Source: a virus. From it: a stretch of DNA of 64,000 nt. The DNA lies in the IMG/VR virus record IMGVR_UViG_3300042402_003181; one strand, written 5' to 3'. How positions within the stretch are numbered: the stretch's first letter is position 1; each line of letters opens with the position of its first letter. Shown piece by piece: positions 21,857 through 27,548 of this stretch. The position numbers and the translations under genes are program-made. A model generated the notes under the pieces. The model did no database searches. It saw only the letters and a program-made list of their open reading frames with translations, and was not told the DNA's origin.

Positions 21857-22040
21857 TTTATTAAAATAATTAAATTATATTAATTCATTTATAATTTAAT
21901 TGTTTTTTTCATTATTGTTGTTAGAGAGAATAGTATTGAGCGATAGCGAAATACAGATGAACGTTAGTTCATCTTTTAATATGAAATATATTTTTTAATA
22001 AATATTCATATTATATAAGGGATATTGCGTTTGCAATATC
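21857..22040. other. AT-rich tract (3 G/C in 60 nt) followed by stacked inverted repeats; origin-like or regulatory
   Basis: 21857-21916 is 95% A/T. Hairpins at 21933-54, 21955-74 (AGATGAAC/GTTCATCT), 21978-22012 (AATATGAA/TTCATATT) and 22021-40 (GATATTGC/GCAATATC). Confidence 0.5.
21998..22004 (+). promoter_or_regulatory. Late promoter ATAAATA
   Basis: Upstream of ATG 22052 (SD AAAGGA). Confidence 0.6.
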
Positions 22041-22051
22041 AAAGGAATATT

Positions 22052-22903
22052 ATGAAAATTTACGAAGTTACTAATCAACTTCCAAGCAAGAAAATACTTG
22101 CTCAGGAATTAAGTAAAATATACGAAGCTGATGCTCCGCCTGATCCTGGGTTCTTTTCTAAATTAGGACGTGTGTTGCATAAAAGTTTAAAACTGTTTAG
22201 TTGGTACGAAGCATTATGGAAACCGTTTGACACGTATATGGTAAACATGCAACAAGTTGAAGCCAATCTAACTAAAGCCGGTAACACTCCAGCTGCAATT
22301 GCTGAATTTAATGAGCAGCATGAACTGCAAATGGGTCAATTAATTGCAGGATTATCTGCAGGAATTATAGTTAGCGGAATACTTGGATCACTTAGTACAT
22401 TTGGAAAATTTTTACAATTTATTCCAGGTATTGGTGGCCCACTAGGAAAAACTATAGGATTGTTATCTGACGGAGCTAGAGCATGGATATTATACGAACT
22501 TCAGTCTGAAACAGGAAGATCAGCAATTGCTAAATTAGTGGTTTTTACTGGAGTTAATTATGATATTGACTGGCTTGGTGTTCATATTCACGGAGACGTT
22601 AATATAACACAAATAATTGGTAAACTAGGTGTTGAAGCACACGATTATTTTGAAGATTTATTTAGACGTGCAATTGGATTAAAAGAATTAGATAAACCCA
22701 TTAATGGAAAAGACCAGTTAGATCCAAATGCGCCACCGCCAACTCCACCGTTAACGCCAGCACAAGATGCAAGTCTAACGGCACAGATGTTTAGCACAAA
22801 TAAACCAGTTGAAAAAGAATTGCCTGTTCCAGGTGAATACCTAGGATCTAGATTGCAACGTAATCCCGTAACAGGCAGAGTAGAAATGAAGTCATTACAA
22901 TAA
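22052..22903 (+). CDS. Hypothetical protein with hydrophobic segments (possible internal/ejected virion protein)
   Basis: Starts MKIYEV... after SD AAAGGA. It has a hydrophobic Gly-rich stretch (LIAGLSAGIIVSGILGSLSTFGKFLQFIPGIGG) and a Pro-rich C-terminus. Confidence 0.7.
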   Translation: MKIYEVTNQLPSKKILAQELSKIYEADAPPDPGFFSKLGRVLHKSLKLFSWYEALWKPFDTYMVNMQQVEANLTKAGNTPAAIAEFNEQHELQMGQLIAGLSAGIIVSGILGSLSTFGKFLQFIPGIGGPLGKTIGLLSDGARAWILYELQSETGRSAIAKLVVFTGVNYDIDWLGVHIHGDVNITQIIGKLGVEAHDYFEDLFRRAIGLKELDKPINGKDQLDPNAPPPTPPLTPAQDASLTAQMFSTNKPVEKELPVPGEYLGSRLQRNPVTGRVEMKSLQ

Positions 22904-23128
22904 TGGCATTCTAGATACTTTTGTCATTTCTATATTTTCTTCAATTACATTATACATAATCATACGATCTTCGTGACTTAGGTTATACAGGAGATCGTTG
23001 ATTGACACTCCTCCTCTCATATACCACGATATTTTAAATAATTCATGTTTAAATCGTTTAACTTCGTTATCTAGCCTAATTAGATATTGACTAATTGAAT
23101 CTCTTGATTGTCCAATTAGGCGGGATCG
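22895..23128 (-). CDS. -1 frameshift extension of the gp26-like gene (77 aa, no in-frame start of its own in the 5' half)
   Basis: The open -1 frame reads RSRLIGQSRDSISQYLIRLDNEVKRFKHELFKISWYMRGGVSINDLLYNLSHEDRMIMYNVIEENIEMTKVSRMPLL*. It is entered at the slippery heptamer T TTT TTC (plus strand 23128-23134). Not in the ORF track. Confidence 0.7.
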   Translation of the reverse strand, partial: RSRLIGQSRDSISQYLIRLDNEVKRFKHELFKISWYMRGGVSINDLLYNLSHEDRMIMYNVIEENIEMTKVSRMPLL

Positions 23129-23946
23129 AAAAAATTCGATTGATCTAAGTCAACTGATATTGATGACTCGTGGTTACAATCAAGGTTACTACAAATTACT
23201 TTTACTGCTGGAATTTTCCAATCAGATTTAGTTTGATCTAAATGTGCTTTAATAATATTAAAAATTTGTTTATCGCAATTTTGTAACCATTCTGAAATAA
23301 AATTAGATTCAGTTACTACTATTTTTCCAGTATCAATTGATTCGATACTAGCCGAATAAACTTCATTTTGCATTTTACCTAATTCAATAAACAAATCATG
23401 TACAACTTCTTTATATTTCTCTGCAGGTTCAATTGGAGTTGCTGCTAATTGTTGCTGCATTTTAAAATTTCTTAAAGAAAACTCAGTAGTTTGTTTATAA
23501 TTTAGTGGTTGCAATTTGATAGTTAATGTGCCAACTTCAATTGTATTATTGTATATACAACTACTAAAATGATCGATCACTGTACCTAAATCAATATCGT
23601 AATCGTTTTCTGTTTTACATTTTGGGCATGTATGTACAACTTCTAACACACTCCCATGAGTAGCAATTCGAATTGCTGTTAGTAGTAGATCAACATCTAA
23701 TGTAGTTACTGCCCAACCGTCTTTAATTGACGGGCAGCAGCTTTCAATTAGTTTCACTGAACTATCACCGGATAATAATGCATCCGGAGTTTTCATTATG
23801 ATATCGTCCATACCTGTCATACCAAATATTGGCATGTGTGTAGGATCACCAGTAAATGTTCCTAATTGATTGTATATTCCTTTTGAAGGTAAAGAAACGA
23901 ATATTTTTGGTTGTCTATAAAATTCTTGTAAAGGGTTTTGTGCCAT
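23116..23946 (-). CDS. gp26-like baseplate-hub/tail assembly protein (probable tail assembly chaperone)
   Basis: 276 aa with NPLQEFYRQPKIFVSLPSKG, MKTPDALLSG, DVDLLLTAIRIATHG and CPKC...C..DC Zn motifs. It is adjacent to the tape-measure-like gene. Confidence 0.7.
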   Translation of the reverse strand: MAQNPLQEFYRQPKIFVSLPSKGIYNQLGTFTGDPTHMPIFGMTGMDDIIMKTPDALLSGDSSVKLIESCCPSIKDGWAVTTLDVDLLLTAIRIATHGSVLEVVHTCPKCKTENDYDIDLGTVIDHFSSCIYNNTIEVGTLTIKLQPLNYKQTTEFSLRNFKMQQQLAATPIEPAEKYKEVVHDLFIELGKMQNEVYSASIESIDTGKIVVTESNFISEWLQNCDKQIFNIIKAHLDQTKSDWKIPAVKVICSNLDCNHESSISVDLDQSNFFDPA

Positions 23947-23958
23947 TTGTTACTCCGC

Positions 23959-23981
23959 ATAAATATATTAACCGTATTTAT
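23959..23981. promoter_or_regulatory. Crossed pair of late promoters for the tape-measure-like (+) and gp26-like (-) genes
   Basis: ATAAATA on the plus strand at 23959-23965 and ATAAATA on the minus strand at 23975-23981, within a 62-bp intergenic gap. Confidence 0.65.
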
Positions 23982-24008
23982 ATATACAAACTTATAGGAA
24001 AATAAAAC

Positions 24009-27000
24009 ATGAGTAGTGAAGACGATAGACGTAATGATCAATTAGATAAGCTTATCAACGCGTTGGAAGGTAATAATCGAAATAATCGAAGATCTAACCC
24101 AGATTCTGGATCAAGCGGTGGCGGTGGTGGATGGGGCGGATTTGGCCAAATATTTGTTAATACTGCACAAACTGGCGCTAAAGCATTAGACGATTTATGG
24201 AGAGGAACTCTAAATGTGTCTAATGGTTTTGACTCGTTAACTGGAGTCTTAAAAAACGCAGATTCATCTCTTGGTAAAGTATTTGGCCAGATCGCATCTC
24301 AAGTTGGAACTGCTCTTATTGATACTACTGCAAGTTTAAACAAAGCTGGATCAAACGGCGCTGATTTTAACATGGATATTGCAGAATACGATCGCTTATT
24401 AAAAGGCGCTCGTATGACCCATGAGCAATACAACGACATGATTAAGCATAGTGCTACTGATTTAGCAGGATTAGGCAGTGGAATCAATAAAGCTCAAAAA
24501 CACTTTTTAGATATAGCTAGAGATTTTCAAGAATCAGACGTTGGTGCTAGATTTAAAACGTTAGGGTGGACTACTGACGAACTTAACGAAGTTACCAAAG
24601 TTGCAATGTCTAATCGCAAAGGCATGGACCTGAACGATCCCAATAATCAGCAAAACGCAGTAATAGCTACTGAAAAATTAGGAACGGCAATTGATGAAAA
24701 TTCAAGAATACTTGGTTTAAGTAGAAAAGACCAACTTGAGGCGCTTCAACGATCAAAAGACGAAGGCGATTTAGAAGCATCAATGTTATTAGCTGGCCCA
24801 CAAGCTCGTGCGCAATATAAACAAGCCGAAGCTGATTCAATGGGAATGGGCGACTCTTTTAAACGAGTAATGAAAGAAGCGTTTACTGGAAAAACTACTG
24901 CAGAAGGTTCAGAAGCAGCAGCAGCAACAGGCACAGCAGCTGCTGCAATTAGAGAATATGGGATATCGTTAAAAGATACTACAGATGAAGGCCAAAAACG
25001 ATCTGAAGCATTAGGCGAAAAAGCTCGTGCAGCGCAACTTGAATATATGAATTCTAAAGGTGCATTAGAAGCTGCAGCTCTAGCAGGCGGCGCAGTTGCT
25101 GACAAAATGGGTAAAGAGTTAGTTACAAGTAAAACACAAGGTGTATATGTAACTAAACAAGCCGAAGCAGCATCTGAAGGTAAAAAATTAAGTGCTGAAG
25201 ATGCCTTAAAAGAACTAAAAGATGCTGCAATAAACCGCCGTAACCTTAAAACAGAAGAAGGCGGTGCACTTGACACGCCAGGTGCAACTGTATCAAAAGC
25301 ATTAAACAATGCAGATCGAACGTTATCTGATTTATTTGCCGGGTCAACTGAAGGATTTAGTAAGTTAGTTGGAGCAACTGATGATGTTATAAACAAATTT
25401 CATTTATTAGATTCTGAAGTATTAAAACCTCATAAACAAAAAGATATAAATTTAGACGCAATTGTTGGAGAGCTAAAAAAAGGAACGGGCGATAAAGTAA
25501 ATAAATTGTTTGAAGGTAACAACGCAAACATACCAGTTACTCCTCCAAAACGTGCATCAGGATCACCTGAAATTGACAGTTTTATTAAATCATCTTCCTC
25601 ATCTTTTAATAGTATGTTTGAACAATTTAACCCAAAAGGTGAAATGGTAGAACTACATGGTGCAGAATCAGTAGTAACACCTAAACAAATGGAAGGTATT
25701 ATTGCTAAATTTATGCCTACCGATATAATGGACATGATTAAACAGCCAATGAATGCGGCTAAATCACAGTCTCAACAAGGAATGCAACCGTTTACAATTG
25801 ATTTACCAACATCAGGCAACGCAACACAAACCGCAGACCACAAACCAATAGATATTAAATCGTTAGCAGTACTTACGCCAAACAACGAAGATTTATTAGT
25901 AAAGAACATTTCTACAACTGTTCATGATGTAGTTACTAAAGTGTTTCACCCCATGGGGAATATGCTACAAACAGTAACTAAATCTGTTGAAAAACATACC
26001 GAACCTAAAAAAGAAGAACCTAAAAAAGAAGAAAAGCCAGCTGAACCTAAAAAAGAAGAACCTAAAAAAGAAGAAAAGCCAGCTGAAGTTAAAAAAGAAG
26101 AACCTAAAATACTAGATTTAGGTATTAAAACTGCAGAAGATTTAAACAAGTTTATGTTTGGCACACAGCAAGTTGGTACCAAACAGCCTGAAACAAAACC
26201 AGCTGACGGTTTTCCAGCTATTCCAGGTCCATCAATAACAAATAGAAAACCGCATTGGATTCCAGATGAAAATGGTACAGATCAACCAACAGGTTCGTTT
26301 AAACAAATTGATTATGATATAGACACTGAAGCTCTTCAAGATCAAATAGCATATCTTAGAACACGGAAAGATGAAGATGCAGAACATGATCTTCCTATAT
26401 ATGATGAGATGTTACGTCAACATTTAGCAAAAGGTAGACCGGCTGACGAAGTAATTAAAGGCGGAAACGTTGAAAAAGAAATGAAAACGTTTAATGACTC
26501 ATTAAAAAACATGGGCGGACCTGAAACTTTTAAAGAAATTGGTTCTCAACTTACTGATTCAATATCTACAGCATTGCCATCAACTGAAAAATTAGAAGAA
26601 ACAATGACATCTGCAACTGATACATTTAAATCTACTGATTTTAATAAAGCATTTGCATCAGTTGGCGATTCTTTTGCATCTGCTAATGTTAGTACTCCTA
26701 CTGTTGAAGAAAAAGTACCAGATGCATCAATAGAAGAACAACAAGCACAGCTGAAAAAAGACAATGACAAAACAGTTGACAATTATCTTGCTGCTAATCC
26801 TACTGCTGAACTAGTTGAACCTAATAAAGATGAAGCTAAAGATAATTCACCGGGAATATTTGATAAGTTTACAAATTTATTCAGTAGTAGCAATAAACCT
26901 GCATTTGCAAGTGGTAATGTAAAATACGAAACTATACCACAAGCAGAAATTGATGCTAGAGATAAAGAACTTCAAAAAACTATAGGTACAATAGACAATA

Positions 27001-27548
27001 GTCCGGAAGCAATTGAAGCTCGTAATGCAGAACTTGACAGACAGAAAAATTCAGGGATGTACAAACAAAAAGAACCAGAGAAACATGTACTTCCTGAAAT
27101 TAAAAAGCCTGCAGAAACAAAAGAGCAAGCTCATATTAAAGATATGTACAAAAAGTTTGGTCTTGAATCGTTTAATGACTACAATGCAAGAATGACAGCT
27201 GAAGAAAAAGCTAAAAAGCCTGATCACAGCAAGCTTGCTGAAATTAAACCAACTGTAATGCCAACAATTAAAGCACCTGATATTAAAGCACCGGTAGTTT
27301 CAGGAGATTCATTAAAGCCGCCATCTCCGCCAGTGGTAAACAAGCCGCATGAAGAACAAAAACCAGCCGAACAACCTAAATCTACAGCGCAAGTTGTTGA
27401 AAAGCAAGTATCATTAAAAGATATACTCGATGCAGTAACAAAGTTAAATAACACAATGACAACGATGGCACACCATACTGATAAAATTAGTACTAACAGC
27501 CATAAACAAATTAGTGCAACACAAAGTTTATCTAATTCAAGATTTTAA
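24009..27548 (+). CDS. Tape-measure-like protein
   Basis: 1179 aa. The N-terminal half is Ala/Gly/Lys-rich and helical, followed by a MVELHGAESVVTP motif and a low-complexity K/E/P C-terminal half. It is adjacent to the chaperone-like gene. Confidence 0.65.
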   Translation: MSSEDDRRNDQLDKLINALEGNNRNNRRSNPDSGSSGGGGGWGGFGQIFVNTAQTGAKALDDLWRGTLNVSNGFDSLTGVLKNADSSLGKVFGQIASQVGTALIDTTASLNKAGSNGADFNMDIAEYDRLLKGARMTHEQYNDMIKHSATDLAGLGSGINKAQKHFLDIARDFQESDVGARFKTLGWTTDELNEVTKVAMSNRKGMDLNDPNNQQNAVIATEKLGTAIDENSRILGLSRKDQLEALQRSKDEGDLEASMLLAGPQARAQYKQAEADSMGMGDSFKRVMKEAFTGKTTAEGSEAAAATGTAAAAIREYGISLKDTTDEGQKRSEALGEKARAAQLEYMNSKGALEAAALAGGAVADKMGKELVTSKTQGVYVTKQAEAASEGKKLSAEDALKELKDAAINRRNLKTEEGGALDTPGATVSKALNNADRTLSDLFAGSTEGFSKLVGATDDVINKFHLLDSEVLKPHKQKDINLDAIVGELKKGTGDKVNKLFEGNNANIPVTPPKRASGSPEIDSFIKSSSSSFNSMFEQFNPKGEMVELHGAESVVTPKQMEGIIAKFMPTDIMDMIKQPMNAAKSQSQQGMQPFTIDLPTSGNATQTADHKPIDIKSLAVLTPNNEDLLVKNISTTVHDVVTKVFHPMGNMLQTVTKSVEKHTEPKKEEPKKEEKPAEPKKEEPKKEEKPAEVKKEEPKILDLGIKTAEDLNKFMFGTQQVGTKQPETKPADGFPAIPGPSITNRKPHWIPDENGTDQPTGSFKQIDYDIDTEALQDQIAYLRTRKDEDAEHDLPIYDEMLRQHLAKGRPADEVIKGGNVEKEMKTFNDSLKNMGGPETFKEIGSQLTDSISTALPSTEKLEETMTSATDTFKSTDFNKAFASVGDSFASANVSTPTVEEKVPDASIEEQQAQLKKDNDKTVDNYLAANPTAELVEPNKDEAKDNSPGIFDKFTNLFSSSNKPAFASGNVKYETIPQAEIDARDKELQKTIGTIDNSPEAIEARNAELDRQKNSGMYKQKEPEKHVLPEIKKPAETKEQAHIKDMYKKFGLESFNDYNARMTAEEKAKKPDHSKLAEIKPTVMPTIKAPDIKAPVVSGDSLKPPSPPVVNKPHEEQKPAEQPKSTAQVVEKQVSLKDILDAVTKLNNTMTTMAHHTDKISTNSHKQISATQSLSNSRF
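26001..26108 (+). repeat. In-frame 42-bp tandem repeat (EPKKEEPKKEEKPA, ~2.6 copies)
   Basis: 26001-26042 is identical to 26043-26084, followed by a partial third copy. Confidence 0.9.

Follow-up and report, generated by a model that had tools for sequence, protein, structure and literature searches.

We analysed a stretch of 64,000 nucleotides (nt), hereafter the window, from the virus record IMGVR_UViG_3300042402_003181, which belongs to a 176-kb IMG/VR contig with a CheckV completeness of about 48%. Our subject is the 3' end of a minus-strand gene for a protein of 276 amino acids (aa; P0001), where a second reading frame, offset by -1, remains open past the stop codon (Table 1). The 276-aa protein matches PF12322 (T4_baseplate; E = 4.1e-12, 46.7 bits against a cut-off of 24.5) and phrog_150 ('baseplate hub'; 1.6e-12). 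Judged from sequence, the source is an uncultured giant T4-like phage and the gene a member of the T4 gp26/gp51-type (PF12322) hub chaperone family, in agreement with the gp26-like identity given by a first-pass annotation of this DNA. The closest cultured relatives are jumbo phages of the RaK2/121Q/Atu_ph07 type, at ~27–29% identity, and a blastn search of the locus against a phage collection returned zero matches. The protein carries two CxxC-type cysteine pairs (C107/C110 and C252/C257) and a conserved C-terminal N-F-F motif.

The gene ends ...GAT CAA TCG AAT TTT TTC GAT CCC GCC TAA, encoding ...DLDQSNFFDPA*, so that three sense codons separate the TTC of an in-register T TTT TTC from the stop. 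The first-pass annotation had singled out this heptamer as a slippery site of the X XXY YYZ type and had described a -1 frame of 77 codons with a TGA upstream and no ATG, GTG or TTG before codon 37. We recovered each of these features. The -1 frame reads RSRLIGQ...SWYMRGG...RMPLL; on its upstream side it is closed by the TGA, seven codons ahead of the first post-slip codon. Its first potential start is the ATG at 23020 (codon 37), and an ORF (open reading frame) listing therefore shows merely a 41-aa ORF at 22895..23020. The two predicted products are 276 aa and, by calculation, 272 + 77 = 349 aa, where about 350 aa had been estimated.

Table 1. Features at and beside the chaperone gene, in window coordinates.
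Feature	Position	Strand	Basis
Short-form gene, gp26/gp51-family baseplate-hub assembly chaperone, 276 aa (P0001)	23116..23946	-	PF12322, phrog_150, alignments A1 and A8
Slippery heptamer T TTT TTC (X XXY YYZ, zero-frame register)	23134-23128	-	Invariant in 85/85 IMG/VR relatives
Spacer GAUCCC, 6 nt, heptamer to stem	23122..23127	-	Folds
Putative stimulatory stem-loop, 11 base pairs	23074..23121	-	Single-sequence fold, covariation, RNAalifold
Stem 5' arm GCCUAAUUGGA, holding the zero-frame UAA (23118-23116)	23121-23111	-	
Stem loop, 26 nt	23110-23085	-	
Stem 3' arm UCUAAUUAGGC	23084-23074	-	
-1-frame extension, 77 codons, predicted to follow residue 272 in a 349-aa long form	22898..23128 (stop 22897-22895)	-	Conservation, fusions
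T4-late-promoter-like motif TATAAATA, 28 nt upstream of the chaperone ATG	23975..23982	-	Read from sequence; resemblance to the T4 late-promoter consensus
Divergent neighbour, 1179 aa, probable tape measure protein	24009..27548	+	Synteny with RaK2 ORF088, language-model neighbours

Conservation of the heptamer, the -1 frame and the RNA stem

Two scans of IMG/VR yielded 85 loci whose gp26-like proteins are 44–72% identical to that of the window, and 12 cultured jumbo phages were read as well (RaK2, Atu_ph07, BF17, 121Q, PA5oct, XacN1, CBB, Phosso, Kaldavass, Munch, fHe-Yen9-03 and XaC1). In all 85 IMG/VR loci an in-frame T TTT TTC with a G after it stands 3 or 5 codons before the stop, and the heptamer with this G is invariant in 68/68 distinct rows of alignment A4. 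In each of the 12 cultured phages, an in-frame slippery heptamer stands at the same F-F motif (TTTTTTC in 11, TTTTTTT in XacN1), with the zero-frame stop 3 to 13 codons past it. The conservation of the heptamer, and of the -1 frame ahead of its first ATG, was one of the checks that the first-pass annotation had put forward; both were found, the latter frame being conserved as protein.

The same counts bear on an artefact, in which a homopolymer error split a continuous 349-aa ORF, or on decay into a pseudogene. Homopolymers are error-prone and the split falls exactly at the T6 run, but T6-C is identical in the 85 metagenomic assemblies (many samples) and the 12 finished genomes, with differing technologies. 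An assembly error is excluded by the recurrence of the same run in ~100 independent assemblies. Purifying selection on both frames and true single-ORF homologues that have no T run at the junction (both below) also speak against artefact or decay, which we regard as extremely unlikely.

The extension is exactly 77 aa long in 83 of the 85 IMG/VR loci, the remaining two being cut by a contig end. Its peptide is homologous across loci (R-x-S/R-L-I/T ... SWYMRGG ... MPLL) and is conserved from the first residue (alignment A3). Upstream of the heptamer, the -1 frame is closed within 2–18 codons in the IMG/VR loci. The first possible start codon varies between codons 7 and 37 across the 85 loci, with none before codon 24–37 in the window and most relatives. 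A homologous -1 extension of 70–79 codons is present in all 12 cultured phages, and it begins at the same residue in all lineages despite the moving zero-frame stop. In PA5oct it contains zero ATG, GTG or TTG codons, and in most homologues the downstream ORF has no start or Shine-Dalgarno (SD) sequence.

Selection on the -1 frame starts at the first post-slip codon. This codon is an invariant Arg (CGN): C and G are fixed after the T run, while the next base is free (C in 27, T in 19, A in 15 and G in 7 of the 68 sequences). The free base is the third position of a codon in the -1 frame and would be the second position in the zero frame. An invariant CG with a free third base indicates that reading in the -1 frame begins right where the heptamer ends, ahead of both the zero-frame stop and every potential start. 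Further along, codons 6–36, which precede Met37, show a diversity of 0.365/0.223/0.474 at codon positions 1/2/3, a coding pattern. On these alignments, both frames are under purifying selection.

Alternatively, the downstream frame could be an independent gene of 41–75 aa, expressed by its own initiation or by termination-reinitiation, with the heptamer a by-product of N-F-F in an AT-rich genome. Gene callers and annotators do list such small ORFs (in 121Q, BF17, Phosso, CBB and others), yet their starts are late, variable or, as in PA5oct, absent, while the codons upstream of them are conserved as protein. The invariant Arg codon lies right at the heptamer, before the zero-frame stop, and the start residue of the extension is constant while that stop moves over 3–13 codons. 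In addition, in-frame fusions show that the domain works as a chaperone C terminus, and a fused homologue is predicted to form a single compact unit (see below). Two separate proteins are in our judgement very improbable. T4 26* uses an AUU start, and reinitiation at the ATT right after the stop was also considered for the window; it was rejected since this codon is not conserved (ATT, ACT or ACA in A4).

Several observations call for caution, and the first and last of them would also suit a separate small protein. TTT makes up 86% of the Phe codons in these genes, and a heptamer at N-F-F is therefore fairly likely by chance. A PF12322 paralogue without a useful -1 ORF (the first gene at locus L091, below) likewise has T TTT TTC. 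Lastly, Atu_ph07, Phosso, BF17 and 121Q have an ATG that shares bases with the stop (ATGA or TAATG), and in these four separate translation is possible, perhaps as an additional route. The contrary outcomes foreseen by the first-pass annotation (an own start and SD for the downstream ORF with no slippery site, or an assembly error) were mostly not found. Given the N-F-F motif and the AT-rich codon use, the heptamer alone is weak evidence, and the case rests on comparison.

Downstream of the heptamer, a stem of 11 base pairs follows at 6 nt, and spacings of 5–9 nt are typical of -1 frameshift stimulators. The single-sequence fold of this stem has z = -2.78, and the same stem is folded by every relative in the window's clade. 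Across the 68 sequences of A4, 92.6% of cells are paired, versus 17–53% when the 3' partners are slid. Double changes occur at six pairs, and the observed values were reached by 0/500 shuffles. Moreover, RNAalifold independently predicts an identical helix; Rfam holds no family at the site. The 11-base-pair stem is specific to the clade: Atu_ph07, Phosso and XacN1 carry strong stems of other kinds at this spacing; in RaK2-type phages the structure after the heptamer is weak, and the clade's stem was not seen there.

The stem also bears on the choice between ribosomal and transcriptional slippage; in the latter, RNA polymerase would add one U at the T6 run and a fraction of the mRNAs, with U7, would encode the same NFF-RSR... 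fusion. One added U yields an identical protein, and the ORF layout, the fusions and the CGN selection fit either mechanism. A conserved, covarying stem at the canonical 6-nt spacing would, however, have no role in transcriptional slippage. The run, 6 nt here and never above 7 in about 100 lineages, sits precisely in the X XXY YYZ register. For bacterial RNA polymerase to slip efficiently, runs of ~8–9 or more are usually required. We therefore consider transcriptional slippage improbable.

Standard annotation passes over the arrangement, as the first-pass annotation had anticipated: none of the 12 cultured-phage records contains a joined coding sequence, and the small ORF is either missing or listed as a separate 'hypothetical protein'. 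The extension alone matches no Pfam or PHROG family, and tblastn with it gave matches limited to Atu_ph07, Phosso and, marginally, Xoo-sp13. The literature searched contained no description of this frameshift. In the Yersinia phage fHe-Yen9-03 (L103:689-1564), the gp26-like gene bears the label 'Lead, cadmium, zinc and mercury transporting ATPase', presumably prompted in error by the CxxC motifs.

Fused homologues and the relation to T4 gp26 and gp51

A search with the extension profile (A3) against 1.84 billion representative proteins returned 265 clusters, most of which are small ORF calls of 41–75 aa. About 17 of them, however, are proteins of 319–351 aa in which a gp26-like body and the extension lie in a single frame. 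Their junction, ...LD-x-S-x-x-F-R-x-K-L-I..., aligns gap-free to the predicted ...LDQSNFF-RSRLIG... of the window (alignment A7). The DNA of the fused genes has no T run at the junction, which marks them as true fusions and not sequencing errors. The same search picked out P0117, a secreted-looking repeat protein of 1435 aa in which five stretches match the profile (E = 2.7e-9); its repeats (...YTVTYVMNGG...FNGWFLDEALTE...) look unrelated, and we set it aside as a probable compositional false positive.

At both fusion loci that were fetched, L091 and L092, a second and shorter PF12322 gene, which lacks the extension, stands ahead of the fused one. These tandem genes come from uncultured phages (L091:411-2389 and L092:51-2051). 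The first gene of each pair is short, has no Cys pairs and ends NFFTDNK or NFLPDNQ; at L091 its -1 frame closes one codon after T TTT TTC.

The AlphaFold2 (AF2) model of the fused homologue P0038 is one compact unit (pLDDT 96.2, pTM 0.91) in which the extension forms a helical C-terminal domain. A comparison with known tail-chaperone structures, another check raised by the first-pass annotation, gave some support: the best structural matches of the N-terminal domain are solved tail assembly chaperones, and the domain may have the 'spiral' fold of that class. Foldseek with the P0038 model against solved structures gave no match, and against BFVD the matches were all gp26/gp51-like baseplate hub assembly proteins. 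Profile searching of PDB sequences yielded chance matches and no sequence relative.

In T4, both gp26 (208 aa) and gp51 (249 aa) match PF12322, at 8.8e-64 and 3.9e-52, and gp51 has about 48 additional C-terminal residues. One PF12322 gene is found in each of the complete genomes of RaK2, Atu_ph07, PA5oct and 121Q, and two are found in T4. T4 gp26 retains the F-F motif, coded by the non-slippery TTC TTT, and gene 25 follows directly after, in keeping with the first-pass statement that T4 itself is not known to use such a shift. Both T4 proteins are hub assembly chaperones; gp51 is essential, of unknown function and missing from the particle (Leiman et al. 2010, PMC3004832).

In profile-profile comparison, the fused proteins and the gp51 family align end to end (E = 3.9e-4, probability 36%). 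A diverse 96-sequence alignment of the extension matches the gp51 C-terminal domain over 36 columns (probability 73%, E = 3e-5, score 26.7), whereas the controls scored at most 13.3 in 30 column shuffles and 9.3 with the reversed alignment. The gp51 domain aligns with the C-terminal half of the extension. With the shallow extension alignment A3, hhalign gave no significant match to T4 gp51 or its family, and there is no record of the gp51 C-terminal model PF28602 on the fused protein P0022. Homology between the extension and the gp51 C-terminal domain is likely, though not proven.

The proposed frameshift, the candidate clients and the wider meaning

We propose that a programmed -1 ribosomal frameshift operates at the 3' end of this gp26/gp51-family gene, and we put the probability of this reading at roughly 0.82. 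What the analysis shows is the signal and its conservation, selection on the -1 frame from the first post-slip codon onward, and the fused protein as a single natural ORF in other lineages; that ribosomes slip here, how often they do so and how the short and long forms share their tasks are what we infer. Most ribosomes would read AAT TTT TTC GAT CCC GCC TAA and release the 276-aa short form. Some would be paused by the stem, whereupon the P- and A-site tRNA-Phe would slip in tandem from UUU UUC to UUU UUU. The slipped ribosomes would then read CGA UCC CGC... through 77 further codons and make a minority 349-aa form (...SNFF-RSRLIG...MPLL). Both forms would have in common a body consisting of a chaperone-like N-terminal domain, a zinc-ribbon-like module and a helical region, to which the long form would add the helical C-terminal domain.

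Lambda G/GT and T4 gp26/gp51 offer a model for the roles of the two forms: tape measure or hub proteins would be held by the short form, expected to be abundant, and the rarer long form would serve as the adaptor bringing them to the growing hub or tube. On this model, neither form would remain in the virion. The phage CBB homologue CBB_250 (L098:689-1546) is annotated 'structural protein', a label that would matter for this last prediction.

A candidate client lies next door. The 1179-aa ORF sits between the chaperone gene and a T4-type portal gene, the same place as that of RaK2 ORF088, a virion protein resembling tape measure proteins, and its language-model neighbours are clusters of tape measure proteins (score 0.92). 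No Pfam or PHROG match was found for the 1179-aa protein, and BLASTP against T4 gp29 and RaK2 ORF088 was not significant. From its position and its language-model neighbours, the ORF probably encodes the tape measure protein. It is longer than its presumed counterparts (1179 aa versus 719 aa in RaK2 and 590 aa in T4) and contains Lys/Glu/Pro-rich repeats (KPAEPKKEEPKKEEK, near residue 670); length and repeats together suggest a very long tail or extra domains.

The chaperone gene and the 1179-aa ORF share a 62-nt divergent intergenic region, in which lies the motif TATAAATA, a putative promoter element matching the T4 late-promoter consensus. At the other end, a 292-aa ORF (22025-22903, plus strand) without a match in Pfam or PHROG runs towards the extension, with a 9-nt overlap that covers the final codons and the stop of the extension. 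The -1 extension fills exactly the room left before this convergent gene.

Conserved tail-chaperone frameshifting is a hallmark of long-tailed phages, with T4-type phages a conspicuous exception. T4 encodes a corresponding pair as genes 26 and 51, and on that account the frameshifting gene looks like the T4-type counterpart of lambda G/GT. A broader reading, to which we would give a little less than even odds as a whole, is that the gp26/gp51 family is the missing T4-type homologue of lambda G/GT and descends from a single -1-frameshift gene that was duplicated in T4. The frameshift state would then have been kept in RaK2/121Q/PA5oct-type jumbo phages and their freshwater relatives, while in T4 and certain other lineages it would have given way, by duplication, to two genes, one short (26) and one long (51). 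If this is true, the 'catalytic' gp51, for decades unexplained, would be a GT-like adaptor between the tape measure or hub and the tube.

The locus and its about 100 relatives suggest that T4-type hub chaperones follow the same two-product logic, achieved through recoding in jumbo phages and through paralogues in T4, and this offers a testable function for T4 gp26 and gp51. The proposal also adds a predicted 349-aa protein that no annotated genome of this large phage group lists; among the group are RaK2, 121Q and PA5oct, which infect Klebsiella, E. coli and Pseudomonas. For phage-assembly and recoding specialists alike, the putative cassette (U UUU UUC, 6 nt and an 11-base-pair stem) may be of interest as a compact, conserved bacterial -1 site for mechanistic study.

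Comparison with known two-product systems

In E. coli dnaX, a bacterial -1 frameshift makes tau and gamma, and a slippery heptamer and a downstream stem-loop set the product ratio. The present locus is alike in having both elements and two predicted products from one gene. The dnaX shift, however, shortens the protein and is helped by an SD-like element upstream, whereas here the shift would lengthen the protein and no SD-like element was seen.

In function the locus would resemble the tail-chaperone genes of lambda (G/GT), P2 (E/E+E') and Mu, in which a -1 slip likewise takes place at an X XXY YYZ site near the 3' end of the chaperone gene. A conserved -1 frameshift in tail assembly chaperone genes of P2, Mu and other phages was reportedly described by Xu, Hendrix and Duda in 2004 (cited in PMC9024508). 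In this class, the short part binds the tape measure and the long part the tube protein, and virions do not contain the chaperone. As in lambda, an abundant short and a rare long form with a common N terminus would be made from a gene beside a tape-measure or tape-measure-like gene. The heptamer is U UUU UUC here, against G GGA AAG in lambda. The first-pass description of a lambda G/GT-style pair holds for the two-product logic and, probably, for a shared fold; it does not extend to membership of the lambda-G sequence family. This protein has no Pfam tail-chaperone match, since the Pfam and PHROG scans give solely PF12322 and phrog_150, and it is about twice as large, with the zinc-ribbon-like module and the long helical region. 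The gene order also differs. In lambda, tube, chaperone and tape measure follow one another on one strand; here the chaperone is on the minus strand and the tape-measure-like gene on the plus strand, an arrangement likewise found in RaK2 and 121Q. The chaperone gene lies next to the tape-measure-like gene, divergent from it and not upstream. Unlike in lambda, the clients here probably include hub proteins in addition to the tape measure.

The tandem genes at L091 and L092 offer another comparison. The second gene, with body and extension in one frame, is colinear with the predicted frameshift product, and the first is a short form without the extension. This pair can be made without recoding, and the Cys pairs have been lost from its short member.

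T4 gp26/gp51 belong to the same family, PF12322, and likewise comprise a short and a long form. As a chaperone would be, T4 gp51 is required to assemble the hub but missing from the particle (PMC3004832). Its C-terminal domain is about 48 aa, compared with the 77-aa extension of the window. In T4, the pair consists of two divergent genes with separate starts, whereas the jumbo phages would obtain it from one gene and a frameshift.

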